Assembly: GCA_041665505.1 (NCBI GenBank) | Contig: JBAYIR010000002.1 | Location: 11,602 to 75,601 of the forward strand | DNA from: Patescibacteria group bacterium | GTDB taxonomy: Bacteria; Patescibacteriota; Patescibacteriia; UBA1558; GWA2-36-10 | Direction of reading: 5' to 3' | DNA: 64,000 nt | Shown here: positions 5,286-57,441 of the stretch, one piece after another | Position numbering within the stretch: the first letter of the stretch is position 1 | Layout of the letters: the number at the start of each line of letters is the position of its first letter | The notes under the pieces: generated by a model | Databases searched by the model: none | The model's input: the letters and a program-made list of their open reading frames with translations, nothing else | What the model was told of the DNA's origin: nothing | Position numbers and translations under genes: made by a program

Positions 5286-5361
5286 GACTAATAGCCCAAG
5301 CATTGCTTTTTATCCACAAAACAGCTAGAATGGAAACATATTAACTAATATAAACTAATTT

Positions 5362-5877
5362 ATGGGAAACTTTAATAGAGACAGAGGTGGAGACCGACGC
5401 GGTGGCGGTGGAGGTTTTAATAGAGACAGAGGTGGAGACCGACGCGGTGGCGGTGGAGGTTTTAATAGAGACAGAGGTGATAGACCAACTATGCACAAAG
5501 CTATTTGTGATGCTTGTAAACAAAGTTGTGAAGTCCCATTTAAACCAAGTGGTGATAAACCAATATATTGCAGCGACTGTTTTAGCAAACAAGGTGGTGG
5601 CAGTGATAGACCAAGATTTGGTGGTGGCGACAGAGACAGAAGACCACGCTTTGAAGATAAAAGCGCCGGACCTAGAGATTCAGATTCCAAAGATATTTTA
5701 AAAGGTGTTAAAACCTTAAATTACAAGCTGGATGAACTGATAAAAATACTAGGTTCACAAAATACTAGAGTTTCAATAGAAACTACTAATGAAGAAGCAG
5801 CTCCTACTAAAAAAGAAGCTAAGAAAAAAGCTAGCCCCAAGAAAGTAGTCAAGAAAAAAGCTAGCAAAAAGAAATAA
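5362..5877 (+). CDS. CxxC-x17-CxxC zinc-ribbon protein with RGG/RG-rich N-terminus and lysine-rich C-terminal tail
   Basis: CDAC-(17 residues)-CSDC counted directly from the translation; N-terminal FNRDRGGDRRGGGGG repeats; C-terminal KKKASPKKVVKKKASKKK. Confidence 0.7.
   Translation: MGNFNRDRGGDRRGGGGGFNRDRGGDRRGGGGGFNRDRGDRPTMHKAICDACKQSCEVPFKPSGDKPIYCSDCFSKQGGGSDRPRFGGGDRDRRPRFEDKSAGPRDSDSKDILKGVKTLNYKLDELIKILGSQNTRVSIETTNEEAAPTKKEAKKKASPKKVVKKKASKKK
5371..5481 (+). repeat. Perfect 45-nt tandem repeat (about 2.5 copies) inside the CxxC gene
   Basis: The unit TTTAATAGAGACAGAGGTGGAGACCGACGCGGTGGCGGTGGAGGT is repeated exactly; it encodes the FNRDRGGDRRGGGGG units. Confidence 0.9.
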
Positions 5878-21713: not shown

Positions 21714-23135
21714 TTAATAATCCCTTAATTTTCTCATATCTTCGTGTTTTTTGATGCGCTCCAAAGCTTTAGCTTCAATTTGTCTAATACGCTCACGGGT
21801 CACTCCAAATTCTTGTCCTACTTCTTCCAAAGTGTGAGCTACACCATCACTTAGACCAAATCTCATTTCCAATATTTTTTGTTCACGTGGGGTCAAATCA
21901 CCAATTATCTTACGCACATGGTCTCCCAAAAGTTTTAAAGCAGCTACCCTATCTGGACCAATATTTTTCTCATCTTCAATAAAATCTCCTAAGGTGCTAT
22001 CTTCATCGTCATCACCGACTGAGGCTTCTAGCGATACTGTCTCTTGGGAAATTTTTATAATCTGTCTAATCTTATCAATATCTTCACCCATCTCAGCGGC
22101 AATTTCTTCTGGCAATGGATCACGACCAAGCTCTTGAACCAAACGACGCTCAATCTGATTGAAACGATTGATAGTCTCTACCATATGAACTGGAATACGA
22201 ATGGTTCTAGATTGATCAGCCAAAGCCCGAGTAATAGCCTGACGAATCCACCAAGTAGCATAAGTAGAAAACTTGTAACCTTTGCGATAATCAAATTTCT
22301 CTACGGCTCGAAACAAACCAATATTTCCTTCTTGAATAAGATCTAGTAAAGTCAAAGAGCGACCAGTAAATTTTTTGGCAATAGACACTACCAAACGAAG
22401 GTTGGCTTCGATTAATTTTTTCTTGGCTTCCAACTCTCCTTTTTCTTTACGCTTGGCCAAGGCCATTTCTTCTTCCGAATTGAGTAGCGACACTTTACCA
22501 ATTTCTCGCAAATACATTTGTATAGAGTCAGCGGCAATATCAGTCAAGTCACCTCTTTTGGTATCACTACCTACTCCAGATTTTGATAGTAAGGCTGAGT
22601 TATCTGTGGCCATATCCAAAATATTGCCTTCTGTCACCACCACTTGAATAGCTAAATCTTCCAATTTATCTAGCAACTCTTCTAATTGAGGAACATAATC
22701 TTCTAAATTATTAAAAACACGCAAGACCTCATTTTCGGTAATAAAACTACGAGAATGAGCCTTCTTAATCAAAAGCGCCACCGCTGCTTCATCTAATTTA
22801 GATTTAGCGGCTTTGATTTTGGCTGGATTTTTTTCTCGCAAACGGGACCCCGCTACGCGTGGGTTAACTACTGACTTTTCACCTACTAGCTTCTTGCTAT
22901 GGTGAACTACTTTGACAGCCTTTTTGGCTGGATTTTTTTTCAGTGTTGTTTTGGTGCCAGTGACCTTCTTAGAAGGATGGACTGATTTTGAAACAACAGC
23001 TTTACGTACCTTACTAGGTTTGTTGGCACTAGCTTTTTGACTAGTGTTTTTTTCCCGCGCACGGGATCCCGCTACGCGTGGATTGACTAGCTTAGTGCTA
23101 ATCTTTTTTTTAGTTGTAGTTTTTTTGACAGGCAT
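21714..23135 (-). CDS. rpoD: RNA polymerase sigma-70 factor RpoD with a lysine-rich N-terminal extension
   Basis: Regions 2-4 are conserved ([13 protein letters not shown]; C-terminal [23 protein letters not shown]); lies immediately downstream of dnaG. Confidence 0.9.
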
Positions 23136-28658: not shown

Positions 28659-29624
28659 TTATTTATAATTTTGTTTATATCTATTAATAAATTCTTTTAA
28701 AGTAAATTTGTGTGCTTGGGTACCTTGATGTTCCACTGCATAAGCCGCAATAGTACTAGCTAGCTGAGCTGACTTTTCTAAACTAGCTCCTGAGACTAGT
28801 CCTTTTATCAGTCCAGCCCGATAAGCATCGCCAGCCCCTGTGGGATCTATCACTTTTTTGACCTTAGTAGCTTTAATATCTATCCGCCCGTCTTTAGAAT
28901 GTATCTCTGAACCATCAGCTCCTTTGGTAATTACCAAAATGTCTACTAATTTTTCCAATTTATCATGCCCTAGATTTAATTTATCTAAAATTAATTTTAT
29001 CTCATAGTCATTACCAATCAGTATTTTAGAGCCTTTTATCACTTGTCGCAACTCAGAGGCGGTAAAAGAAGTAATCTGCTGACCTGGATCAAAAATATAA
29101 TCTAAACCCATTTCTTTATACAGCCTGATATAGGCTATCATCCGTGGTTTAAAATCAGGTGAAACAATAGCTAGAGCTGGATTTTTTATTTTTCTGACTA
29201 ATGAGCAATATTCAACATCCATTGGTCCTGGATAAAAGCCAGATATTTGATTATCTGCTTTATCAGTCATGATATAAGCTGAAGCAGTGGCTTCTTTTTT
29301 GGATTGTTTGACCAAAGAAAAATCAATTTTATTTTTCTTAAGCCACTGACCATAGCGAGTAAAATCATGTCCAACCAAACCAAGTAAAACTGCCGGCTCT
29401 TTGAGCAAAGCTAGATTATAAGCAATATTTCCAGCCGTGCCACCAAAACTTTCATCAGTTCTTTCTAAAGTAAAACTGACATTTAAAATATGAGTTTGAT
29501 CTGGCAAAATATGATCTGAAAACAAACCAGGAAAATCCATGATTCGGTCATAGACAATAGAGCCAGAAACTAATATTTTTTTATCCCGCGGACGGGATCC
29601 CGCTTTATGGTGATTATTTGTCAT
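28659..29624 (-). CDS. PfkB-family carbohydrate/nucleoside kinase (possibly adenosine kinase, given the ahcY neighbour)
   Basis: C-terminal [17 protein letters not shown] (the GAGD anion-hole motif of the ribokinase family); the N-terminus carries the in-frame GC-rich AGSRPRDKK element. Confidence 0.7.
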
Positions 29625-31074: not shown

Positions 31075-34000
31075 TTAACCTTCTATTTCTGTTATGTATT
31101 GCCCATAAATCCAGCCACTGATTTTATCATCGACTATAACCTTATACCAATTATAGCTATCATCAGCCACACTCTGTTTTTCTACAGCCTCAAATTTATC
31201 ACCACTATTCACTTGCGTCAAGATTTTAGCACTCTTACTGGGATTTTCTCGTAGATTCAACCAACCAGTTGGCGTATCTTTAACGATCAAATAAATAACT
31301 ACTACCTCCTCCACTCCTGTACTAGTGGCAGTACTAGAACTATTTCCTCCATCAGAAAATGATAAATCAATTAACTCATTATCTATATTCCCCGAAATAA
31401 CAAAATCATCAACTGCTTCATTAGTGACTAAATCGTTGACATTAGTAACTATAGCTTTATTATCGCTAGTAGCTATTATTTTATTTTTCAAAATCATTAT
31501 TTGTGACCTTAACAGATAAGCACTAAAGACTGCCAATATAATAATTAAGACTAACCAAACTATCTTACGATTTATTTTCTGCCAAATAAATTTGGTAAAA
31601 TTAACGTTTATTTTTTCTTCTATAGCTTCTATAGCTAATTTACTCACTTTCTTTTTAGCTCTAGTAGATTTTTTTGCTTTTGCCCCACTAGAAGCTACCA
31701 GTGGTTTTGGTTCGCCGGCAATAACTGCCATATTGCTCTGCAAAGCTAACTGACCATTGGCAATATTTATCTGATGTCGCCACATGGAGAAAAGTATAGT
31801 GACTAGTAGTGCGAAGCCAGTGACAAAAGCAATGATTATACCCCAAACTGAAACTGCTTGCATACCACCAAAGGCACCCAAAAATCCTTGAGAAGCATCA
31901 GCTTGTGTAACCAAAGCTTTTAATTCTTCTAAATCTTTGTTGACGGCACTTAAACTTTCTTTGTTCTCCCGATAAGTCATTATTTTATCTTGAGGCGAGG
32001 CAGTATTTTCTTTTTGGGTACGCAAAATCTTTTCTACTCTTTCATCAACGTCATTTTTTAGTAAAAGAGCTTGGGAAGAATATTGATTTTTTTGTAATTT
32101 TTTATAAAAATCACCAGCTTGAGCTTGAGCTAAACTCAAATCATTTTCCGCTATGAGCCAAATGTCACGCATCTTGATAAATTTTTTGACTGACTCACCT
32201 GGTTTAAGTTCAATTTCACCACTAGCAAATAATGTGTCCAATTGAATATCATACTGTATATTGAAACCGCCATCATCTATAATATGCTCAGTCTTGGCCT
32301 CTTTTGGTAAATAAATCTTAAACGGCACTTTTTGGGTAATTAAAGCTGGATTGGATATCATGATATTTAAATCGACTGATCCTGATGTATACCAAGTACT
32401 GACTATTGGTGAAGCAGTCTCTTGCACTACTTGTCTTTGGACATTAGCGACAGTTTTAAAATCAGCTATCTTATTACGGACATATTTGACATCATCCATA
32501 TTTTCTCTAGATACTGATAAAATGGTGTCTAAGGTATCATTATCTAGCCGTCCCAATTTTGTATTAATACTACTTATGGAACTAGAAATAGTACCCATAG
32601 CACTAAACATTTCTTCTGGCTTAAGATTATAAACATTAGTATGATTAGTAGTGCTACTGCCTGAGCCGACTTCAATATCATTAATACTTGTTTCTAAACT
32701 AGCAATACTAGCTTCAATATTATCTAATTGCGTTTTAATCAAAGCAATATCTTCCTTAATTAAAGTTACATCATCTTTTATACCAGCTACGTCTGATTGA
32801 ATGGTGTTTATTTTAGTGACTGGTACAGCTAGCTGTTTTAATATTGTAAAAGCATCACCGTTATTTGGCGCAAAAGGCAAATCTGGTTCTAGAATAATAG
32901 CTTTGGTCGTACCATTATAATCATCTATCCGCCTAGCCACTCCGCTATTTTGACCAGAAGTAAATGTCAATAAGGCATGAGTATACAAATCATCAACTGT
33001 ACTGGCTAAGTTACTTCCTAATAATGAAAGCGTGGAGGCAATCTCAGCTGTACTGACAGTAGATCGTATAGCAATCAAATCATCCGATAATAAATCAATT
33101 GTATTTTGTAAGGTGCTAATACCACTACTCAATGTCGTCTCAGTAGATTGTAAATTTGAAAGAGTGGCTAATGATCCACTATCCAAATTGGCACCTGATA
33201 AATAGCGTCCACTATAAGCCCAAACTGAGGCAGCATCTAAAGTAGCCGCATTTGAAGTTTGTGCTAAAATTGTAAAAGTATCAGCATCAGTCGGAGCTAA
33301 AGATAAAGCTGGATCAACTGTAATAGCCTTGGTCGTACCATTGTAAGCAGTGATACGTCTGACTTGGCCAACATTCATACCCGAGGTAAATAATAAAATA
33401 TTATTTTTATAAAAATCATTAGTAGCATTGGTCAGAGCAGTAGCAAAAACTGTAGTAGAAGGAGATAAATCAGCCACTGCCGTCTCCGCTACAATCAAAG
33501 CACTAATAATTTTGTCTAATTTAGCACTATTAGCACTAATAGCATTAGATAAAACTGTTTCCGTGGCTTGAATGTCTGATAAAGTAGCTAGTGACCCAGT
33601 GTCCAAAGTAGCTCCTGATAAATAACGGCTACCATAAGACCAAATAGCCGCTGCATCCACTGCTGAATTAGCTGTTTGGGCTAAAATAGTAAAGGTATCG
33701 GCATTGCTTGGAGCACTAGCTAAGGCTGGCGAAACAGTGATTTGTTTATTGGATCCAACATAGTCTGTAATACGACGAGCCTGGCCTGCATTAACGCCAG
33801 AAGTAAAGACTAAAACTCCATTGTTATAAAAATCATTAGAAGTACTAGTTAGAGTAGTAATAAATTGTGTATCACTTGCACCAGCATCATTAACAGCTTT
33901 TTGAGCAACAATTAAATTATTTATCAAAGTATCCAGCTGAGCACTCAAAGTAGTTTCAGTGCTTTCGATGTCTGATAAAGTAGCTAGTGACCCAGTGTCC

Positions 34001-37000
34001 AAAGTAGCTCCCGATAAATAACGACTACCATAAGACCAAATAGCTGCTGGATCTAAAGAAGCATTAGCCGTAGCTGCTAAAATTGTAAAAGTATCACCAT
34101 TAGCTGGCGCGGAATTTAAAGCTGGGTTGAGTGTTAGTTGTTTGGTAGCCCCAACATAATCAGTAATACGTCTGACTTGACCCGCATTAGCACCAGAGGT
34201 AAAGACTAAAACTCCATCATTATAAAAATCATCACTAGCACTAGCTAAAGTACTAATAAATTGAGTATTAGAAGCTCCAACATCATTGACCGCTTTTTCA
34301 GCAATAATTAAAGTAGCTATAAATTGATCTAAAGTGGCTTGTAAAGCCGCTAGATCACTAGCTGAGGCGCGAGAAGAAATAGTAACGTCAATATTAGTTT
34401 TTAATAAGGTGCCAATACTATCAACAGCTGTTATAGAAGTAAGTAGTGTATCCCATACCCTCTGAGCTGTCACATCACCGGCTGTCAACTCACGACTAGA
34501 ATAAGCCCAAACCGAAGCCGCTAAAGATGCTAGACCGTCATTTTCAATATCAGTAATTGTCCTAGTGGCTGCTGACCAGACATCAGTGGCTGTCAAATTA
34601 CTAATACCACGTGAAGATATAGTAGCATCTAAATTATCAGCTATTAATTTACCGATTGACCCATTTTGTGACAAGAGAGCTGAAGCTACATCCCATACTT
34701 GTGTCGGATCATCTAAGCTTACTCCTCCGGTCAAAGTGCGGACACCATATTCCCAAACTTGTTGGGCTGACAGGTTATTTAAAGCGGCAATAGCTTCATA
34801 ATTTTGTTGAATGCGTCCAAATAAAGTATCAGCACTGGATAAATCAGAAGGTGAACCCACTAAGGTTTCTAGGGTATCAACGTAACCCTCCATCTGATCA
34901 ACATAAGCTAATACTGACTGTAAATCTTGATAAGCTGAAGTCGATTGTCCATTGTAGCCTAATTCTGTTTGGACAGAATTTATCTTATTATAGGCGTCAT
35001 CAGCTTTGTTGAAAATAGCATCAGCTGTTTGAGTACCCCATTTTTCTTGTAAAAATTTACTGCGGCCAAACAAAGTATTGGCACTGGATAAATCTGTATG
35101 TTCACCAATTCTAGTCTGGACAGTAGTCAAAGACGAAATAATATCAGCCGCACTATAGGCTCCCCAATTAGCCACAATATCATCTACTTGAGTTCTAATA
35201 TATTGAGTATCTGTATAAATATCATCCACCTTAGCCTTTATATAAGTCACATCAGCTTGCAAGGTGGCAATCTCCGCACTAGTGGCCAGTGCTCCACCGC
35301 CTGACAAAGTAGCACTAGTCAGTTTTCTATCTACATATTCCCAGACTGCTTGAGCAATTTCTGCAGCTGAAGCTCCACCACCACTAGAGCTGACGTTGGA
35401 ATATTGGCTTAATACCACGAACTCATCATTAAAAGCTGGGGCAAATGGTAAAGCTGCATCTACTGTAATGGCTTTAGTAGTACCATTATAACTAGAAATA
35501 CGACGAGAAATACCAGCATTTTGACCAGACATCATAACCACAGTTTGATTCTGATAAAAGTTTGATGTCGCTTCAGTCAAATCAGTCACAAAAGTAGTAG
35601 CTGTAGCTGCCACATCGCTGACTAAACCTCTTTTGACAGCCAAACGATCATTGAGCAACTGACCAAAAGATCCATCAATATCAGCAAATGAACCAACTTG
35701 AGCTCCCCAAATACTAGAAGCTGTGAGTCCTGTAGACAACCAAGGTGAGACTGGCTGACCAGAAGAGAAAAAGTCTAGAGTACCAGTATCTACTGTGCCT
35801 GACAAAACAGAAACGTCATCTAAATAAACAAAAGGTCGTCTGAAAAGCTGATAGTCACCAGCAGTAGCATTGACCATGGTCGTGCTCTTTAAATGTGGTG
35901 CTACTATACCTTTTAAAAATAATATAGTTGGCGTATTTTTTACTACCTCAAAAATACGACCGTAAGTATCTTTAAATAAATAGCCAACCCATTGATTGGG
36001 TGTCCAAGATTTATCTACATCTTCCACCCATGGTGGTAAATAATTACCTAATGGATTAAATATCACTTCACTACTACCCTCATCTTCCACTACAAAAGAT
36101 GACTGCGCGGATATAGTCAAATCTGCCAAAGCAGATTCTGTTGGTGTACCAGAAACTACAAACTGTTGCCATTCATTAGCTGTGTCGGCAGCAGTCCAAG
36201 TCAAATTAGCACCAGTCATACCAAGACCTGACAAAGTAACTGTTGGTAAATTACTGGATCCATAATAACTATTAACTCGAATATAGCCCGTGACCGCTAG
36301 TGGCTCATTGGCCACACCAATAACTTTGGCTGAATATTCCAAAGGCACATCTGCACTTTGCGACTCCATACGCCAAGCATAACCACCAGGTGTATGCACG
36401 GTAGTGTCAATTAGACCAGCACCAGTAGTACGCATATTACCAAAAGTACTTTGATTGACTATATCTCTGGTACTACTAGAATAATTCATACGAATATCAG
36501 TACCTGGTATAGTACTAGCCATATAAGTATCCCCCAAACGAGACATATTATTATAATCTTGGGTGCCAAAAAATACTGGGCTCAAAATCTGCGTATCCAC
36601 ACCAGTAAACTGTAATAATGATTCTGCTTCAAAAGTTACAGTATTTGGTGGCATACTAATATCTGCTTCATTCCACATACCACGTCCAAAAATACTACCA
36701 TTATCAGTCACTGATACAGAAGAATAAGAAGGATGCGAACGGATACCTGAACCATATTCAGCACCAACTGTCACTGAACCATCAGAAACATGCCCATCAA
36801 AGGTATTATCAGACATATTAACAAAAGCATTACCATGCAAACGAATACCATTGGTATTTAAAGAAAATTTATTATCATTAATAGTGACCTTGGCAACGCC
36901 GACACCAAAGTTTAGTGCTCCAGATGTTCCAGCACCAGTCACACCATTATTATAAAATTCAGAATTAGCTACAGTATATAAACGACCAGACACAAAGGTC

Positions 37001-40000
37001 GCCGCACCACCGGCTGCTGCTGGCGGGGCAGTTACATAGGCATTACGATGACCCATGAAAATACTACCGTCAATACCAACATTTTGACTAGTAAAAGCGT
37101 TATAACCAGCGCCAATATTGGCTGCTCCCACATGAGTAGTCACAAAGTAAGCACCAACCATATTTGAGCCCTGAGTTTTAGCTATGACAGTATAAGCTCT
37201 GTCAAAATAGTTATAAAAAACTGATTTAGAAATTGTCTGTGTTGGGTATGGTGTTACCGAGGTATAAGGATTAGTAGTCACAGCAAAATTATTATACTGA
37301 TTTTCCATTGACAGATGATTCAAATTCATACTGGCTAGCCCGGCTAGACCCACTGCTGATACACCAAAACCAATTCCTTGATTTACCATATTAGCTGCTG
37401 CCAAAGTTGCACCAGTGTAAGAAATATCTTCATCTGACCAAATATGCGTACTGCGCTTGAGATTCAAAACTGGTGAATAAGTCGGACTAGAGCTGGAATC
37501 CCTAGCTGCTTTATGATGATAAGTAAAATTGTGTGACCAACCAGCTAAAGTGGCCGCTGTTCCATTTTCCTCATGACCAGAACCATATTTGATACGAGCC
37601 GAAGGAGTATATTTTTCTCCAGTATTATCTACCCAAACACGAGTGCGCTCTGGATAAGTAATTACCCTAATTCTTTCATTACCAGTATCAGCACCATTGG
37701 TAAAAATCATATTAGGACTACCCCAGGCATAATCAGCCCAAACCCAACCCTCTTGGGGATTCATAGCGCTGTCAAAACTAGCTCGATAAATATTTGTGCC
37801 AATACTGGAGCCACAACCAGCTGTTGCTCCTCCAGTCCAAATAGTTGCCGGTACTGTAAAATTACCAAAATTACAAGCATCAGAAGTATCTACTTCATAA
37901 TCAAAAATATTAAACTCATCAATCGCTCCATCAAAAGCGCCATTGTACTGCCAATTATTACCAAGTCTAATTAAACCAGCATTAGCACCACGGGCCGCTA
38001 AAGTCGTACCTTGGTTAGTTTCAAAAGCTACACCATCAAGCCAAGCTCGTTTAAAAGCCGTGGCTGTTTCTCGCCAAGCTACCCGTAAATGATGCCACTC
38101 GCCAGCCGTAGCTGAGAAGGTCTGCTGTAAGACAGTGCCTTGTACTGCACCAGCATAAATAGCTACCTCTAATTTACCATTAGTATTATGTCTGACAAAC
38201 AAACGATCCGTATCACCTTGGTTAGCGTAGTCAAGTAAATATTGACCATAAGGACTAGTGGAAGTTGCCGGTGAACCAGTATAATTAGTTTTAAACCAAA
38301 GATCTATTGTGCCATGTTGCCTAGCTGTAGCTGTGCCACTCTGACCTTCTATATTATAACGAGTGGCAATCGGACTACCAGTTGTCGCCCAAGTAGGTGG
38401 CATTAAAACTGCACTACCCATACCATTGACGCCAGTCCAAGCGCCATTATTTCTCAAATAATTATTTTGTAAAAGCAACATCCGATCACCAAACTTGGTG
38501 GCTGTTGGGTTACCAGAGTTTATACGCAAAGAAATTTTACTATCTGGTGCAGTATAAGTTGTACCTGGTGTAGCTGTACCAGCTGCACCTGTGGTACTGC
38601 CTGTGACTGTATAATTACTATTAGTCGGGTTCCACTCAAAATCCCAAACTTCATATTTAGTATTAGCATCACTAGTTGTAATACCTATACTATTATCTAA
38701 ACCCTTATAGCTCTTAATAGCGGTAGAGCTAATATAAATTTTATCTCCCACTTCAGGTCTGACTGTGCCATTCCAACCACCTTTATGTTTAATAGTAAAA
38801 TTTAAATAAGAACTAGTGAAAGGCACACTGGGATAAGCATTACCTATTGGTCCAGCACTTGATCCAACTAAACGCCAATAATCAGCATCATCAAAATTAT
38901 CGGCCCAGCCATTACTAGCACTCATAGAATCAAAAATCGCTTTGGTGCCAGCACCACTGGTCGCTGATCCTACATAAACACCTGTTTTACCAGTGGTGTA
39001 AGTAGCATTAGTAGTTGTAAAATCCCAAGAGCCTGGTTCGCCAGAATTGCAATCAGTAGTAGCCCAAAATTTGACACTTAGTGCTGTGCCTGTTACATCA
39101 GCTTTTAGACAATACCAAGTACTATCACTAAAAGCTTTGGTGGTTGGTGTGCCAATTACCGTTGGTACACCAGCTAAAGTAGTATAAAGCCCTACCGTGT
39201 TGGCGGCATTGGTCTTAGTAATTAAAGCAGCATAGCCATTACCATCAATACTCTGTCTCATTAAAAATCCTAAGCGACGTGAAGTAGCATCAGCTGCCAT
39301 ATCCATATAAACTAAGCCCGAAACAGTATAGTCAGTCGTATCTACATTGGTATTTTGAATATTAAGATGAGTCAAGTTTGTCTCATTGATATTCATCTGA
39401 CCATCTTTGATATGCCAAACATAAGGAGCTGACGGCGGCACAATAGCAGCCGCAGAATATTTGTGAGTTTCTATCCAACCTGGTGAATTACCATATTCTA
39501 AAGTAAATGTTTCATTGGGATTATAGCTCAAGCCAGTGGTAATCTGTCCAAGCTTAGCTTCTTGACTACCTGAAGATACATTAAGTACCCCCGAATCAAT
39601 ACGCTCTAGACCACTCATACCAATGGGTGTATTTTGATTAACTGGCGAAGTGGTCCAAGAAGTAAAACCAGAAATTCGCACCCTCACCCAATAGGCATTA
39701 ACTCCATTGATAGTAGTTTTGGCTGGAGTGCCAGTCAAATCATAAGGCGTCCAACTTAAAATGCGACGTGGAGAATTACCATTTTCTGTGAAAAAATTAC
39801 TAGGATTAAATGATTTCCACTGTCCGCCATTGAGACGAGAAATCGTAGCTGACTGAGCTGTAGTATAGTCAGCCGTCACTGGCTCCGTAAAAGTAATAAC
39901 ACCCGCAGCGACCGCACTAATACGCCTATAGATTGGGCTAGAATCATTATCATCTATCATTACTACTTGATCAACGCCAAAGTTGGCTTGATTACCAGAT

Positions 40001-43000
40001 GTCACTGACACAGTATAAGAATTTCTAGTGGTGTTGGCAGATAATGGTACGCTATGTCCTGTACGTGTTTGATATTTATAAGCATCACGCGGTGTAAAAC
40101 TAGTCCAACCAGCCCCATTATAAAACTCCCAAGTGAATAGTGCTGAGGAGTTCATCAGCGTACCCAGATTTGCTTCCAAAGAATACATCATGTTGGTACC
40201 TTGATCACCAAAATATATAGCATCGTTTAACTCAGTATTAGCTCCATCACCAAATAAAGTCCAAGTAGTAGAACTAGCATAATTTGCCGAATACAATGGT
40301 GAACCACCATTGTAATCAGCATTATAAACATTAGTGACTGGTATAGTGCCAATTTCTGCTGTCTCAGTATTTGGTGTTGGCAAAGCATTACGACCCAAGC
40401 CGGCCAGGCCAGTCCAAACTGGGAATTGATTAATATCATCAGTGCCACCCATTCTGACAGAAGACAAATTATTATCTACTACTTGATTGGTAGCACCAGC
40501 TACTGTGATATTATCTAGTGGCTGCCAATTACCCACTACATTGTCTTTGACATCCACCCAAGTAGCTCCAGCATCAGTGGAATTATTACCCAAATAGCCA
40601 GTATCAATATTACCGTCAATATCAACAGCCAAGTCACTTTTCATAGTGCGAAAATCATCACTACCTTGACCATACAGATTGACCCTACCAGTTCTATTGT
40701 TATCTTGCGTGCCGGCATTAGTACCAGTTAGTCCTGTCATAGTATATACTCCTGCTCGCCTATCTGTACCAGTTGGTAATTCTGTCTGTGGACCCTTGGC
40801 AGCATAGGCACCTTGAGCCACTGTATAGCCAGTCACCAAAGCAGCTGTCAAAGTAATAACCGTAGAACTCTCCACTGCTGCTACAATCCTAGTAGTAGCC
40901 ACTGAGTCATTATCATCAATTATGATTGTGTCTCCTGGAGCAAAATTACTAGTGGAAGCTACAGTCAGAGTGACAGTAGCTGGCGAGTCAATAGTTAAAA
41001 GTGAAGAAGCAGCTGGTGAAACATTATCAAAATAAATATCCGCATGTGTAGAAGCTGGTAGTGGATCAGTACTATCACCAAAAGCCAAAGTAGCATCAGA
41101 ATCCAAAACAATTTTACCAGGAATAGTGATACGATAATGTTGATTAGCTGTGTCAGCAATAGTCAATTTTGAACCCGGTGTCACAAGAGCTGATACCCAA
41201 CCACCATTATAAGAATAAGCAGCAAAATTACCTCTAGTTCCAGCACCATCGCCAATAGCTGCACCATAATTACCAGTATAAGCTAGAGCCGCATCCCAAG
41301 AGCGATCAATACTGACTACATGTTGGGCTTTGTTGAGCCAGACATAATCATTGGTCAAATTTGTCGAATCAGCTGTATCAGAATTATTAGCCCCATTACC
41401 AACTATCACAATATCACCATCAGCTGGAGCATCAGTATTGGCATCACCATAAGCTACAAAGAAAATATGTCTATTAGATAAAAAAGGATAATTAGTTAGT
41501 GAGGTTGCTACAGCTTGACTCTTGGCATAAGCCAAAACCACTGAGGTAGTACGAGCTAATTGCGAATTTAAGCCAATTGGATTTTGGGTAAAATTATAAG
41601 AAGTAAAACGCAAAACATCACCATCGCTTGGTGTTCCAACATTAGATAGGTTAGCTGAAATCTCAGCTATTCTAGCCCCCTCAGCCACAGTAAAAGCAGT
41701 AGTTAAATTGGCTGCTAAAATAATAGATGGACCACTGGAAGGACAAGCTCCATCAGAAGCGTTGGTGCTGGCAATACGATGTGTCACAATTGGTGCTGTA
41801 TTATTGTCCCAAATCTGGACACTAGCTGCTGTACCAACTGCTGCTGAAAAACCGTCAATACTAGCTACACAAACACGAGTAGAGACAGCTGAATCAGCAG
41901 TCAAAGTAGTAATAGCACCTTGGACTATTCTATTTTTCCAGATAGCCTGAGCAACTGTGGCATTTTTGCTAGTAGTAAAACCAGTTGTAGTCGCGGCCGT
42001 TGTGACAATAGCTGGACCATTGCTGCAACTAGCATGAGAGTTGGTCACTGAAGCTACGGTCAAAGCCACTGTAGCTGTATCAGCATCCCATAAATTAATA
42101 GTTTGATTAATAGAAAAACCACTAGTTGAAGCTACACATAAAACAGTGCTAGCAGTAGAATCAAGAGTCAGAGTAGTCAAAGGTACACCATCATTAACCC
42201 AAGCAGCGCCCGTGCCACCAGTGGTGGGTGTAGTTAATTTATTTGTTTGCGTACCAGAGACAGTACCGGCTAAAGTCCAATTAGAATTACTAGAAGAATA
42301 AGTAGCTGTCCAATGCTCATTTTGTGTCCTTCTAACCGTTGGTAAACCCACACCAGCAGCTGAATTGGCAGCGACCATAGCAGCCGCTGTCAAGCCATTA
42401 TGTGCAGCTAAAACTTTTGGCATAGTAATAGTTGGTGCATTGACCAAGTCTATATCATTAGCACCAATAGTTCTTATTGTACCATTTACTGTCGGAAAAT
42501 CTCCATAAGGTGCATTAGCTGCCCAAGTACCAAATACTGGTGTACCAGCACCCATATTAATTATTCTAATACCATAATGGGCACCAGAGGTGACTGCTAA
42601 CTCTGGATCAAAACGAAAATCAAAAGTACCACGACCATATTGACCAGGCGCTAGATTTTCACCAGACAAACCCTTATTAAACTGTATAGCTGCTCTTCTC
42701 AAAACAACAGTATCACTCGGATAGGTATAAGCACCTTGGGTGCCAGAGACATAGTTAGAACAAGAAGTAGTACAAGTTGCTGTTGGAAAGCTCAAAAGCT
42801 CGGCTACAATATCCACATTGGATAAAGAAGTGATAGTTAAATTTTCTAAAATCAACTGTACACCACGTAAATTACCACTAGCGCTAGGCTTAAAACCAAT
42901 AAATTGAGCGGCCGCATAAGTAGCGGTTGCACCAACTGCCACATGACCCAAAGCCAAAGCTCCAGCCGCACCATCAGTCACCGATGGTCCGGGATGAATA

Positions 43001-43926
43001 GGATTAAAAGTACCGGCCTCGGCATCACCATTTACACCATCACCAGAATAAGCCATAGCTGTATACCAAGAGCCGTTAGTGGATAGAGTAGTAGTACCAG
43101 CTGATACCTTGACCGCTCCTGTAAAAGTAGCGGCATAAGCTGGTGTATCATTTTTAAATAACCAATTAAATAAAGGTGTAAAAGAAGTAATACCTAAGGT
43201 ACTAACAATTATAGAAAAAACCAGCCAAGAGGCCATAGTCCGACGTAAAAGTATTTGTCTTGGCTCTCTTAATAGCTGTTTAAAGTCCGCCAAATTGAGC
43301 ACTGGTTGCATAGCCAATCTAGCTTGTCTATTTTTTGGTATTATTTTTTTCTCATAATAATCTGGCACAAAACGAACTAAAGGTTTTACTATCCATAATA
43401 AAAATAATTTGAATTCGCCTAGTCTGATTTTAAAATTATTTTTAAACTCTGCCCGATGGTCTAAAAGATAGCTGGCTCTTGGTCCAAAAAATCCCAAAAA
43501 TTTAACAAAAAATAAACTTATCCCGTACCAAGTAATTTTTAATAACAAAAATAAAAATAAATAAAGCCCTTTAAATATAGAAAAAACTCCTAGGGCAATA
43601 TTTTTTACTAAAAAACGTAATGATATTTCTACAATTGGCAATTTAGTTTTAACCAAACGGCTAAAATCATTAACTCTTGGCCAAAAATCACGCTTCAGAA
43701 AAGATGAAACTCTAGGTAAAAGCCACTTAAAGAATAAAAATAAATTTTTACCAATAAAAACAAGGCTAATAAATAATATATAGCCTATAAGTACTAAAGC
43801 TGAGGTGATTATTTTGGCCAACCAGACTAAAAAATAAACAAATAACTCTAATAATATCAGCGCCTTTTTAGTAGTTTGTTTACCATGACGCCTAAATTGC
43901 CAAACCGGCCAAGAATGTTTTTTCAT
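31075..43926 (-). CDS. Giant (4283-aa) membrane-anchored surface protein with LamG/ConA-like domain, repeated ~135-aa modules, coiled-coil region, two C-proximal TM segments and a C-terminal SH3b domain
   Basis: Single uninterrupted ORF. The N-terminal ~250 aa are polytopic. The product is Thr/Ser/Ala/Gly-rich. A LamG-like block is present (…WHHLRVAWRE…NGAFDGAIDEFNIF). Four to five FTSGxNAGQxRRIxDYxG modules are seen. The C-terminal SH3b-like block reads GWLNLRENPSKSAKILTQVNSGDKFEAV…YNWYKV. Confidence 0.8.
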   Translation of the reverse strand: MKKHSWPVWQFRRHGKQTTKKALILLELFVYFLVWLAKIITSALVLIGYILFISLVFIGKNLFLFFKWLLPRVSSFLKRDFWPRVNDFSRLVKTKLPIVEISLRFLVKNIALGVFSIFKGLYLFLFLLLKITWYGISLFFVKFLGFFGPRASYLLDHRAEFKNNFKIRLGEFKLFLLWIVKPLVRFVPDYYEKKIIPKNRQARLAMQPVLNLADFKQLLREPRQILLRRTMASWLVFSIIVSTLGITSFTPLFNWLFKNDTPAYAATFTGAVKVSAGTTTLSTNGSWYTAMAYSGDGVNGDAEAGTFNPIHPGPSVTDGAAGALALGHVAVGATATYAAAQFIGFKPSASGNLRGVQLILENLTITSLSNVDIVAELLSFPTATCTTSCSNYVSGTQGAYTYPSDTVVLRRAAIQFNKGLSGENLAPGQYGRGTFDFRFDPELAVTSGAHYGIRIINMGAGTPVFGTWAANAPYGDFPTVNGTIRTIGANDIDLVNAPTITMPKVLAAHNGLTAAAMVAANSAAGVGLPTVRRTQNEHWTATYSSSNSNWTLAGTVSGTQTNKLTTPTTGGTGAAWVNDGVPLTTLTLDSTASTVLCVASTSGFSINQTINLWDADTATVALTVASVTNSHASCSNGPAIVTTAATTTGFTTSKNATVAQAIWKNRIVQGAITTLTADSAVSTRVCVASIDGFSAAVGTAASVQIWDNNTAPIVTHRIASTNASDGACPSSGPSIILAANLTTAFTVAEGARIAEISANLSNVGTPSDGDVLRFTSYNFTQNPIGLNSQLARTTSVVLAYAKSQAVATSLTNYPFLSNRHIFFVAYGDANTDAPADGDIVIVGNGANNSDTADSTNLTNDYVWLNKAQHVVSIDRSWDAALAYTGNYGAAIGDGAGTRGNFAAYSYNGGWVSALVTPGSKLTIADTANQHYRITIPGKIVLDSDATLAFGDSTDPLPASTHADIYFDNVSPAASSLLTIDSPATVTLTVASTSNFAPGDTIIIDDNDSVATTRIVAAVESSTVITLTAALVTGYTVAQGAYAAKGPQTELPTGTDRRAGVYTMTGLTGTNAGTQDNNRTGRVNLYGQGSDDFRTMKSDLAVDIDGNIDTGYLGNNSTDAGATWVDVKDNVVGNWQPLDNITVAGATNQVVDNNLSSVRMGGTDDINQFPVWTGLAGLGRNALPTPNTETAEIGTIPVTNVYNADYNGGSPLYSANYASSTTWTLFGDGANTELNDAIYFGDQGTNMMYSLEANLGTLMNSSALFTWEFYNGAGWTSFTPRDAYKYQTRTGHSVPLSANTTRNSYTVSVTSGNQANFGVDQVVMIDDNDSSPIYRRISAVAAGVITFTEPVTADYTTAQSATISRLNGGQWKSFNPSNFFTENGNSPRRILSWTPYDLTGTPAKTTINGVNAYWVRVRISGFTSWTTSPVNQNTPIGMSGLERIDSGVLNVSSGSQEAKLGQITTGLSYNPNETFTLEYGNSPGWIETHKYSAAAIVPPSAPYVWHIKDGQMNINETNLTHLNIQNTNVDTTDYTVSGLVYMDMAADATSRRLGFLMRQSIDGNGYAALITKTNAANTVGLYTTLAGVPTVIGTPTTKAFSDSTWYCLKADVTGTALSVKFWATTDCNSGEPGSWDFTTTNATYTTGKTGVYVGSATSGAGTKAIFDSMSASNGWADNFDDADYWRLVGSSAGPIGNAYPSVPFTSSYLNFTIKHKGGWNGTVRPEVGDKIYISSTAIKSYKGLDNSIGITTSDANTKYEVWDFEWNPTNSNYTVTGSTTGAAGTATPGTTYTAPDSKISLRINSGNPTATKFGDRMLLLQNNYLRNNGAWTGVNGMGSAVLMPPTWATTGSPIATRYNIEGQSGTATARQHGTIDLWFKTNYTGSPATSTSPYGQYLLDYANQGDTDRLFVRHNTNGKLEVAIYAGAVQGTVLQQTFSATAGEWHHLRVAWRETATAFKRAWLDGVAFETNQGTTLAARGANAGLIRLGNNWQYNGAFDGAIDEFNIFDYEVDTSDACNFGNFTVPATIWTGGATAGCGSSIGTNIYRASFDSAMNPQEGWVWADYAWGSPNMIFTNGADTGNERIRVITYPERTRVWVDNTGEKYTPSARIKYGSGHEENGTAATLAGWSHNFTYHHKAARDSSSSPTYSPVLNLKRSTHIWSDEDISYTGATLAAANMVNQGIGFGVSAVGLAGLASMNLNHLSMENQYNNFAVTTNPYTSVTPYPTQTISKSVFYNYFDRAYTVIAKTQGSNMVGAYFVTTHVGAANIGAGYNAFTSQNVGIDGSIFMGHRNAYVTAPPAAAGGAATFVSGRLYTVANSEFYNNGVTGAGTSGALNFGVGVAKVTINDNKFSLNTNGIRLHGNAFVNMSDNTFDGHVSDGSVTVGAEYGSGIRSHPSYSSVSVTDNGSIFGRGMWNEADISMPPNTVTFEAESLLQFTGVDTQILSPVFFGTQDYNNMSRLGDTYMASTIPGTDIRMNYSSSTRDIVNQSTFGNMRTTGAGLIDTTVHTPGGYAWRMESQSADVPLEYSAKVIGVANEPLAVTGYIRVNSYYGSSNLPTVTLSGLGMTGANLTWTAADTANEWQQFVVSGTPTESALADLTISAQSSFVVEDEGSSEVIFNPLGNYLPPWVEDVDKSWTPNQWVGYLFKDTYGRIFEVVKNTPTILFLKGIVAPHLKSTTMVNATAGDYQLFRRPFVYLDDVSVLSGTVDTGTLDFFSSGQPVSPWLSTGLTASSIWGAQVGSFADIDGSFGQLLNDRLAVKRGLVSDVAATATTFVTDLTEATSNFYQNQTVVMMSGQNAGISRRISSYNGTTKAITVDAALPFAPAFNDEFVVLSQYSNVSSSGGGASAAEIAQAVWEYVDRKLTSATLSGGGALATSAEIATLQADVTYIKAKVDDIYTDTQYIRTQVDDIVANWGAYSAADIISSLTTVQTRIGEHTDLSSANTLFGRSKFLQEKWGTQTADAIFNKADDAYNKINSVQTELGYNGQSTSAYQDLQSVLAYVDQMEGYVDTLETLVGSPSDLSSADTLFGRIQQNYEAIAALNNLSAQQVWEYGVRTLTGGVSLDDPTQVWDVASALLSQNGSIGKLIADNLDATISSRGISNLTATDVWSAATRTITDIENDGLASLAASVWAYSSRELTAGDVTAQRVWDTLLTSITAVDSIGTLLKTNIDVTISSRASASDLAALQATLDQFIATLIIAEKAVNDVGASNTQFISTLASASDDFYNDGVLVFTSGANAGQVRRITDYVGATKQLTLNPALNSAPANGDTFTILAATANASLDPAAIWSYGSRYLSGATLDTGSLATLSDIESTETTLSAQLDTLINNLIVAQKAVNDAGASDTQFITTLTSTSNDFYNNGVLVFTSGVNAGQARRITDYVGSNKQITVSPALASAPSNADTFTILAQTANSAVDAAAIWSYGSRYLSGATLDTGSLATLSDIQATETVLSNAISANSAKLDKIISALIVAETAVADLSPSTTVFATALTNATNDFYKNNILLFTSGMNVGQVRRITAYNGTTKAITVDPALSLAPTDADTFTILAQTSNAATLDAASVWAYSGRYLSGANLDSGSLATLSNLQSTETTLSSGISTLQNTIDLLSDDLIAIRSTVSTAEIASTLSLLGSNLASTVDDLYTHALLTFTSGQNSGVARRIDDYNGTTKAIILEPDLPFAPNNGDAFTILKQLAVPVTKINTIQSDVAGIKDDVTLIKEDIALIKTQLDNIEASIASLETSINDIEVGSGSSTTNHTNVYNLKPEEMFSAMGTISSSISSINTKLGRLDNDTLDTILSVSRENMDDVKYVRNKIADFKTVANVQRQVVQETASPIVSTWYTSGSVDLNIMISNPALITQKVPFKIYLPKEAKTEHIIDDGGFNIQYDIQLDTLFASGEIELKPGESVKKFIKMRDIWLIAENDLSLAQAQAGDFYKKLQKNQYSSQALLLKNDVDERVEKILRTQKENTASPQDKIMTYRENKESLSAVNKDLEELKALVTQADASQGFLGAFGGMQAVSVWGIIIAFVTGFALLVTILFSMWRHQINIANGQLALQSNMAVIAGEPKPLVASSGAKAKKSTRAKKKVSKLAIEAIEEKINVNFTKFIWQKINRKIVWLVLIIILAVFSAYLLRSQIMILKNKIIATSDNKAIVTNVNDLVTNEAVDDFVISGNIDNELIDLSFSDGGNSSSTATSTGVEEVVVIYLIVKDTPTGWLNLRENPSKSAKILTQVNSGDKFEAVEKQSVADDSYNWYKVIVDDKISGWIYGQYITEIEG
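32700..34700 (-). repeat. Internal tandem repeat array (about 4-5 units of ~410 nt) inside the giant gene
   Basis: Near-identical DNA blocks are visible (e.g. AGTGACCCAGTGTCCAAAGTAGCTCC[CT]GATAAATAAC recurs at ~33590 and ~33995); protein units are ~135 aa each. Confidence 0.55.
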
Positions 43927-57046: not shown

Positions 57047-57091
57047 TTTTATAGCGACCGGCATCTCGCCGAAGCCTCTGGCGAAGGCGGA

Positions 57092-57181
57092 TGGCGGAAG
57101 GTGAGGGATTCGAACCCTCGGAGGTTTTGACACCTCACACGCTTTCCAAGCGTGCGCACTAGACCACTATGCGAACCTTCC
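57092..57181 (-). tRNA. tRNA-Ser (anticodon GGA), CCA-encoded, long variable arm
   Basis: Manual fold: acceptor GGAAGGT/ACCTTCC; D-stem GCAT/GTGC; anticodon stem CACGC/GCGTG with loop TTGGAAA; variable stem GAGG/CCTC; T-arm GAGGG-TTCGAAT-CCCTC; discriminator G; CCA. Confidence 0.85.
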
Positions 57182-57441
57182 ATTTAAAAAAAATGCTACT
57201 AAACTAAGTGTATTAACTACTCTGTCTGCCTGTGGTAGCTAGAGTAAGAAGGGGCCACCCCCGCAGAGCAGGATGCCGCCTGTGGCGGCATCTGCGAAGC
57301 TTTCAAATACGAACTCTATTATAAATTTTATTGCCCCATTAGTCAATATACAAAATACTTGATCTAAATATTAAACCCCTGTTTGACTAAACAAAGTGAC
57401 ACAAGGTAAAATAGACTATATTAATTATATAATATATAAAT

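Follow-up and report, generated by a model that had tools for sequence, protein, structure and literature searches.

A GC-rich element lies in two genes of a Komeilibacteria contig

We analyzed a 64,000-nt stretch of DNA (hereafter "the window") from contig JBAYIR010000002.1, which belongs to the metagenome assembly of a member of Candidatus Komeilibacteria (Patescibacteria/Candidate Phyla Radiation, CPR), with a focus on a short GC-rich element at the 5′ end of a gene encoding a PfkB-family kinase. The window is AT-rich (~34% GC), the GC skew of its plus strand is negative throughout and the majority of its genes lie on the minus strand. It contains three copies of the element (AGCGGGRTCCCGTNNGCGRGA), one within the kinase gene and two within rpoD, all on the minus strand (Table 1).

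A scan of the window for AGCGGGATCCCGTNCGCGGGANAAAAA with up to three mismatches returned matches at 29578-29604, 23047-23073 and 22828-22854, on the minus strand only, against a chance expectation of 0.00 matches in shuffled sequence. A covariance model applied to the entire window with filters off likewise recovered three copies only (E 1e-8 to 2e-10), the single extra match being a weak one at 57257-57291 (E 0.2). Both searches agree with a preliminary description of this DNA, which had recognized a third in-frame copy of a GC-rich element at the 5′ end of the PfkB gene. That description had the locus right and the coordinates (29578-29612) a few bases off from the inserted unit.

Table 1. 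Coordinates of the element copies and their host genes in the window.
Feature	Position	Strand	Evidence
PfkB-family (adenosine/carbohydrate) kinase, 321 aa	28659..29624	-	PF00294, E 7e-42
Kinase copy of the 30-nt double-hairpin element, TCACCATAAAGCGGGATCCCGTCCGCGGGA	29584..29613	-	Covariance model 40.8 bits, E 1e-8
Primary sigma factor RpoD, 473 aa	21714..23135	-	Sigma70 r1_1, r1_2, r2, r3, r4
rpoD copy 1, TCCACGCGTAGCGGGATCCCGTGCGCGGGA	23053..23082	-	Covariance model 47.8 bits; fold intact
rpoD copy 2, CCCACGCGTAGCGGGGTCCCGTTTGCGAGA	22834..22863	-	Covariance model 44.3 bits; one broken pair in hairpin 2

The kinase segment is absent from close orthologs

The minus strand at 29574-29624 reads ATGACAAATAATCACCATAAAGCGGGATCCCGTCCGCGGGATAAAAAAATATTA and translates to the first 17 residues of the kinase open reading frame (ORF), with the 11-residue segment of the preliminary description at residues 7-17, as it had stated. 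An alignment of kinase orthologs, which that description had called for, identifies the N-terminal segment as an insertion. The insertion corresponds to residues 5-14, N-terminal to the conserved KILVSGS strand, and most of these 10 extra residues are encoded by the kinase copy of the element. Among the 120 best kinase homologs, the only carrier of the segment is P0001 (95% identical). P0002 (93%) and all other homologs have a short N-terminus followed directly by KILVSGS, and 118 of the 120 orthologs have an N-terminus of the form M..(N/K)KKILVSGS that lacks the segment.

The same difference is evident at the DNA level. The closest orthologs that lack the segment, P0002 and P0003 (92%), are shorter by exactly 30 nt. 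The locus that encodes P0002 (L003) reads ATGACAAATAATAAAAAAATATTA, and the window has 30 nt more at that point. The block listed in Table 1 separates the two sides of the empty site, ACAAATAA|TAAAAAAATA, with a positional ambiguity of 2 nt. Three independent assemblies (ENA, Logan SRR6484324 and JGI 3300037810) contain the filled allele, which is thus not an assembly artefact. An insertion that took place after this Candidatus Komeilibacteria lineage split from its 93%-identical relative is the best explanation for the pattern among these sequences.

The two rpoD copies lie within a lysine-rich N-terminal extension, upstream of region 1.1. A syntenic sister strain (L004), whose kinase is 92% identical and whose kinase site is empty, contains rpoD copy 1 and lacks copy 2, with a difference of exactly 30 nt. 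At the copy 2 site, the sister strain has GTAGTTAA|GAAAAAT, where the window has GTAGTTAA-CCCACGCGTAGCGGGGTCCCGTTTGCGAGA-AAAAAAT. More distant Komeilibacteria (L139 and L140) have rpoD genes with neither copy, as far as an alignment that is less exact in the lysine-rich region can tell. Copy 1 is the older insertion, common to the sister strain, and copy 2 the younger. Because copies 1 and 2 share the rare CCACGCGTAG variant, copy 2 probably derives from copy 1. These presence/absence differences of 30 nt among orthologs bear out the proposal that the window holds three in-frame insertions of one DNA element in two unrelated genes.

The inserted unit consists of two abutting hairpins

The unit comprises 30 nt that form two abutting GC-rich hairpins and nothing else. 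Hairpin 1 has the 5′ arm T-C-(bulged A)-C-C-G-C, a 3-nt NNN loop and the 3′ arm G-C-G-G-G-A. Hairpin 2 has the arms T-C-C-C-G and C-G-G-G-A around a TNNG loop. In an alignment of 45 distinct sequences, 98% of cells pair in this two-hairpin model and compensatory double changes occur at five pairs (10 cells), a count reached by 0 of 500 shuffles, though these statistics are to be read with the fact that the search patterns had fixed many stem positions. One example is found in six sequences, where CG replaces TA as the outer pair of hairpin 1. Loop 1 is variable: a GTAG spelling (loop plus stem) accounts for ~25% of copies, and AAA, GAA, GCA and other loops are equally valid. Loop 2 is frequently of the UNCG type.

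The element had been described as a palindrome. The repeat is real, but the structure under selection is the pair of adjacent hairpins and not the central GGGATCCC palindrome. Either that palindrome or a single long hairpin as the structural unit is ruled out, as the compensatory changes are incompatible with both and loops 1 and 2 are not complementary (p = 0.93 and 0.48).

Within the kinase copy, hairpin 1 is degenerate (CCGC has become CCAT) and the covariance model places two non-canonical pairs there. Hairpin 2 is intact, and folding yields hairpin 2 alone. Nothing suggests that the kinase copy has a function, and it has the appearance of a passenger in decay, situated in an N-terminal tail that tolerates it.

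A longer variant, SPQSHRKSGTSGIPSAG, was observed at three loci (L016:5573-5630, L017:2933-2990 and L027:1911-1968). It consists of the canonical core with a 21-nt single-hairpin block (CACCGCAAAAGCGGGACAAGC) nested in the 3′ arm of hairpin 1, which suggests duplication or insertion of half units as well.

The element is dispersed among unrelated genomes

We scanned GTDB (one genome per species) with a pattern that comprised the central palindrome, hairpin 2 and NAAA and left out the 5′ arm of hairpin 1. The scan identified 24 loci, several per metagenome-assembled genome, in assemblies labeled (the labels were not verified) as Patescibacteria, Saccharibacteria, Nitrospirales, Melioribacteraceae and low-GC "Gammaproteobacteria". 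A majority of the matches bear a complementary 5′ arm, TCACCGC or TCCCGC. Since this arm lies outside the pattern, its presence is independent evidence of a real family. A stricter pattern applied to JGI metagenomes identified 109 stretches.

A census of the collected loci (~1 Mb) with nhmmer and the covariance model found 159 copies, or 114 after duplicate removal, of which 37 are sense within coding sequence, 14 are antisense and 62 are intergenic. The host genomes are unrelated and range from 27% to 57% GC, with more than 100 independent copies sharing identical 30-nt boundaries. One high-copy host genome encodes LolA and is therefore not a CPR genome.

We did not find the element in several other sources. 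No Rfam family covers it, either at a permissive threshold on six element-bearing loci or at the gathering threshold on the window. IMG/VR viral contigs gave 0 matches, and PLSDB plasmids gave partial matches at chance level only. A full-text literature search returned no paper with the element DNA, its reverse complement, its RNA spelling or its three encoded peptides, and no paper that connects RAYT (REP-associated tyrosine transposase, where REP is repetitive extragenic palindromic) or REPIN elements with CPR.

These distributions bear on the idea that no mobile DNA is involved and that local events within 7 kb, duplication or gene conversion, gave rise to the copies in the window, with the outside resemblance reflecting convergent GC-rich palindromes. 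The three copies do fall within 7 kb, with none in the remaining 57 kb, and the rpoD copies share not only their rare variant but also similar flanks (TAGTYAA|..|AAAAAA), so that microhomology-guided copying is plausible for copy 2. The kinase copy, however, is of the common, widespread TCACC subtype and not of the rpoD CCACG subtype, and chance would produce about one match or fewer to the scan patterns in the collections searched, as calculated from the number of specified bases. The many independent copies with the same boundaries in unrelated genomes, together with independent empty/filled pairs elsewhere that differ by the same ~30-nt block, further count against this explanation, which we regard as very improbable overall. 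Local duplication may account for rpoD copy 2; it does not account for the kinase copy or the family.

Copies within genes are filtered by translation

Coding copies are found in a range of unrelated housekeeping genes. In addition to the kinase and rpoD, at least 15 such genes contain the element, including those for SerRS, ValRS (three copies), AtpC, a glycosyltransferase, SmpB, ClpC, TrmH, RecG, FolC, a VirD4-like ATPase, AckA, a prepilin peptidase and HolA. The copies lie anywhere from 0.01 to 0.97 of the gene length.

Sense copies occur in all three phases (22, 23 and 8 copies, respectively, before duplicate removal), in which the element reads ..HRKAGSRxRE/DK.., ..SPRSGIPFAGK.. and ..KRDPVxG... 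The common GTA loop would introduce a TAG stop in phase 2, and no phase 2 copy has a GTA loop. Only one of the 114 copies looks as if it broke the frame of its host gene. The preserved frames and the absence of GTA loops from phase 2 thus indicate that coding copies have been filtered by translation. As the unit length is a multiple of three and most phases are stop-free, copies in non-critical regions of a gene persist and add 10 translated residues to its product.

The three window copies share a reading phase and, as the preliminary description observed, all encode AGSRxR[DE]K. This raises the possibility that the segment is a short linear motif with a function of its own, for example as a tag for modification, targeting or nucleic-acid binding, which both proteins acquired and kept by protein-level selection, and the near-identical peptides do fall in basic, probably disordered N-terminal regions. 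Several observations are difficult to reconcile with such a tag. Conservation extends to synonymous positions, with codons (GCG, CGT and CGG) that are rare for a 34% GC genome. The same DNA is elsewhere read as SGIPFAG or RDPVCG, lies antisense or is untranslated, and the segment is dispensable in close orthologs. The shared phase is itself not significant, since 22 of the 53 sense copies are in phase 0 and rpoD copy 2 probably arose from copy 1. We consider selection for a peptide motif the least probable of the explanations weighed here, barely credible given these data. The census of phases and orientations rejects the motif: AGSRxR[DE]K is just one reading phase of the element and has no special status as a peptide.

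Two host genes provide unusual examples. The 3′ end of atpC in L014 holds a copy (L014:2565-2603) whose CTA loop plus stem supplies the TAG stop codon of the gene. A single ValRS gene (L013:338-3285, minus strand) contains three copies, one in phase 0, one in phase 2 and one antisense; the gene also has hexamer microsatellite-like inserts, and its antisense copy adjoins a scaffold gap.

Insertion is precise and leaves no target-site duplication

A search of core-deleted flanks against the collected loci identified seven empty/filled pairs in other genomes which, with the two window sites, give about nine. The inserted block is exactly 30 nt in both groups that contain multiple sequences and in L111, and other pairwise gaps span 28-31 nt. 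In every pair, the first base of hairpin 1 and the last base of hairpin 2 mark the limits of the block, with a junction ambiguity of 0-2 nt, and none of the pairs has a target-site duplication.

The direct repeats that flank some copies (14 nt in L020, heptamer arrays elsewhere) were considered as target duplications and rejected. The empty site in L111 already has both repeat units, and an insertion of 30 + 14 nt in L020 would break the reading frame.

Flanking sequence conforms to a loose preference, TTTA|core|NAAA. Individual targets include TAA|TAAA, TAA|GAAA, TTG|GAAA (the anticodon loop of a tRNA-Ser), TTA|TTAAA (a hairpin loop) and TCGA|CGG. Insertions also exhibit an orientation bias, with a sense:antisense ratio of 37:14 in coding sequence and, for intergenic copies measured against the upstream gene, of 35:20. 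GC skew is negative throughout the region that holds the window copies, and their position on its G-rich strand fits insertion into the lagging-strand template.

Intergenic copies are found in hairpins, repeat arrays and near tRNA genes

Many intergenic copies are situated at the tip of longer terminator-like hairpins (for example, CCCCTCCTT..AAGGAGGGG and GTCCCCCTT..AAGGGGGAC). Others are located in short tandem-repeat arrays or 15-100 nt from tRNA genes. Some genomes have a high intergenic density, for example 4-5 copies per 10 kb in L093 and L094.

Within the arrays, many copies sit between repeat units (heptamers or ~19-mers), such that removal of the core gives back a continuous array. 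GTCAAAT arrays with copies are present in L045, L065, L078, L085, L097 and L136, the last of which has two cores in tandem, 37 nt apart. CAAATTC arrays with copies are present in L044 and L069, GCGAAAA/GCGGAA arrays in L034 and L013, and a further array in L111. The genomes of Ga0154362-type contigs additionally encode larger repeat families of ~100 nt or more (GAGTGACCCTTCGACGGAGCTC..., CATGGTTCGACGRRGCTCACCATG...), each of which occurs with and without the 30-nt core at one internal position. Units that lack the core are found at L093:6160-6330, L131:2825-2995, L102:2780-2940 and L110:3420-3570, and filled units in L036, L090 and L093.

At three Saccharibacteria-type loci (L009:5980-6530; L037:380-960, minus strand; L058:7540-7990), an element copy precedes the start of a small GIY-YIG nuclease ORF (82 aa, PF01541) by 12-15 nt, and an intact tRNA-Ser(GGA) comes after the ORF. 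L009 and L037 contain a second tRNA-Ser(GGA) that is split around the GIY-YIG cassette. The anticodon loop of this split tRNA contains the element (CTTG|GAAA), and in L037 its D loop does too.

A tRNA-Ser(GGA) is also the only tRNA in the window (57092-57181, minus strand). It is bordered on either side (57049-57300) by AT-rich spacer with other GC-rich hairpins, such as GATGCCGCCACAGGCGGCATC at ~57270-57290, and one such hairpin is the weak covariance model match noted above.

Genomic contexts of this kind could alternatively reflect an RNA-level element, such as a stabilizer, terminator, processing signal or translation modulator, or in the extreme form a mini-intron that is excised from mRNA and tRNA and leaves the protein unchanged. 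The transcribed-sense bias in both coding and intergenic DNA is consistent with an RNA function, as are the frequent UNCG-type loop 2, the interrupted tRNA-Ser(GGA) loops of L009 and L037, and the many intergenic copies that closely follow tRNA genes or are located at the 3′ ends of genes, some of them followed by T runs. Against it, antisense copies occur within real genes (for example, ValRS in L013), copies lie at nearly any position within their host genes and the interrupted tRNAs have intact paralogs adjacent to them. A unit length of 30 nt and the lack of in-frame stops or frame breaks show translational constraint on coding copies, and an excised intron would be free of it. Intron-like excision was further examined as a candidate and rejected: only one of 114 copies is a possible split gene, ARAGORN run with introns allowed detected no intact tRNA bearing the element, and Rfam, group I and II introns included, gave no match. 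An RNA role would also leave the appearance of identical 30-nt blocks at new DNA sites unexplained. We consider this explanation improbable, though less so than local duplication. An RNA role may apply to intergenic copies; for coding copies it is contradicted by the translational constraints, by the antisense copies and by the lack of an Rfam match.

A mobile hairpin element is the favored explanation

Considered together, the kinase segment is probably one copy, inserted and translated, of a mobile double-hairpin element of 30 nt that is dispersed among genomes, an interpretation to which we assign a probability of roughly 80%. The empty/filled pairs show that the non-autonomous element enters DNA as a ~30-nt block without target-site duplication and prefers T-rich|A-rich junctions (TTN|NAAA), among them the loops of existing hairpins and tRNA loops. 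In the kinase, the result is a 10-residue insert in a variable N-terminal tail. The three window copies would represent low-copy passengers with no demonstrated function.

REP/RAYT and IS200/IS605 systems move through single-stranded DNA and are characterized by precise, hairpin-bounded, duplication-free and orientation-biased insertion. By analogy, the 30-nt element might spread through single-stranded DNA hairpins that a structure-specific enzyme recognizes in trans. The specific route through single-stranded DNA and an HUH-type enzyme is somewhat unlikely to be the correct one.

Several points weigh against a mobile element. No transposase was found, although the search, tblastn of ~1 Mb of loci with IS200 TnpA and RAYT (YafM) sequences, was a weak test, and the ORFs between neighboring copies are ordinary genes. 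Outside their hairpins, IS200/IS605 ends have additional guide or cleavage sequences, and the element has none of these. The exact-pattern censuses partly impose the apparent constancy of sequence across phyla, and the copy numbers derived from them are lower bounds. Translation of the insert follows from frame conservation and not from direct observation. Finally, folding energies of the individual window copies are no better than those of shuffles, a comparison that is uninformative for GC-rich sequences of 30 nt.

All-against-all clustering of 937 ORFs identified one suggestive recurrent neighbor, the small GIY-YIG nuclease at the three related Saccharibacteria loci. As these could represent one or two evolutionary events, the nuclease is a weak lead as a mobilizer. 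As a tentative proposal, the copies may belong to a family of mobile double hairpins that has not been described before, is ultra-small (30 nt) and crosses phyla. It would insert at TTN|NAAA junctions and into single-stranded loops (terminator hairpins and tRNA D and anticodon loops) and remodel CPR housekeeping proteins by 10 residues, with a structure-specific enzyme as its mover (HUH/Y1-type or small GIY-YIG enzymes being candidates).

The element resembles several known systems and matches none

In the way it works, the element resembles REP/REPINs or a minimal hairpin element of the IS200/IS605 type and, within genes, the Rickettsia palindromic elements (RPEs), but it misses defining features of each. 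REP and REPIN sequences, which are mobilized by RAYTs (TnpA-REP, HUH Y1 transposases), are likewise short (20-40 nt), imperfect GC-rich palindromes that form bulged hairpins and are dispersed in many copies. They are non-autonomous, leave no target-site duplication, are frequent at gene 3′ ends and in terminator-like contexts and have two hairpins as their mobile unit. Unlike these extragenic sequences, which number tens to hundreds per genome, the window copies (three in 64 kb) are all intragenic, and in CPR genomes the element is found within genes and is presumably translated. The conserved GTAG at the 5′ foot of REP hairpins has a counterpart only in the GTA variant of loop 1, and the hairpins of the element follow each other directly, head to tail. 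A REP is typically confined to one species or genus, whereas this 30-mer occurs across phyla. A cognate RAYT gene, which REPs typically flank, was not found by the tblastn search described above.

A similar comparison applies to IS200/IS605 ends and to their miniature derivatives, the palindrome-associated transposable elements (PATEs). Mobility would in each case rest on single-stranded DNA hairpins in place of terminal inverted repeats, and insertion is precise, duplication-free, adjacent to a short preferred sequence and biased in orientation with respect to replication and transcription. PATEs, however, are at least 100 nt long, with distinct left and right ends and cleavage sites outside the hairpins, whereas the element begins and ends at the hairpin feet. 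IS200/IS605-type insertion occurs 3′ of a specific tetra- or pentanucleotide; the flanks of the element show a loose preference (TTN|NAAA). No Y1 transposase or TnpB was seen near element copies. Miniature inverted-repeat transposable elements (Correia, ERIC, Nezha and others) are also small, non-autonomous and dispersed and can form in-frame coding fusions, but have terminal inverted repeats, target duplications (commonly TA) and lengths of 50-500 bp, none of which the element has. Neither the weak tblastn search nor the ORFs between copies provided a parent insertion sequence.

The closest parallel for the coding copies comes from Rickettsia. According to a review (PMC10969869) that covers Ogata et al. 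(2000), RPEs are palindromic selfish DNA found in frame within unrelated housekeeping genes and translated. RPEs and the element have in common the in-frame insertion into unrelated genes of a reduced-genome bacterium, the extra peptide and the lack of a known transposase. The RPE families (RPE-1 to RPE-10) are restricted to Rickettsia and are ~100-150 bp long, adding 30-50 residues, in contrast to the 30 bp and 10 residues of the element. The element also differs in that it is present in CPR and at least one LolA-encoding non-CPR lineage and is abundant in intergenic hairpin loops. We claim no sequence similarity to RPEs, whose families were not compared directly by sequence.

If the proposed mobility is correct, CPR/Patescibacteria, which have almost no intergenic space, would host a selfish hairpin that survives as exactly ten codons. 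Protein-coding palindromes, known essentially from Rickettsia, would then extend to a very large bacterial diversity with a unit five times smaller, and the element would be among the smallest known mobile DNA units. The inserts are strain-level presence/absence polymorphisms in essential genes (rpoD and aminoacyl-tRNA synthetases) that are usable as markers and that can mislead alignments, phylogenies and structure predictions. Clean empty/filled pairs and structural covariation make the transposition mechanism directly testable, and the near-identical 30-mers in distant lineages raise the question of how the element spreads between them.

Other features of the window

Two additional repeat-containing regions of the window were noted. 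A giant ORF of 4283 aa (31075-43926, minus strand) has Laminin_G_3 and SH3_3 matches and, at ~40% GC, lies above its surroundings. It contains an internal 396-bp tandem repeat (33572-34312). The ORF is conserved in the sister strain L004, with 4281 aa. Elsewhere, a perfect 45-bp tandem repeat of 2.4 copies (5371-5479) is strikingly GC-rich (GAGGTGGAGACCGACGCGGTGGCGGTGGAGGT), and three ORFs on both strands overlap there (5355-5877).

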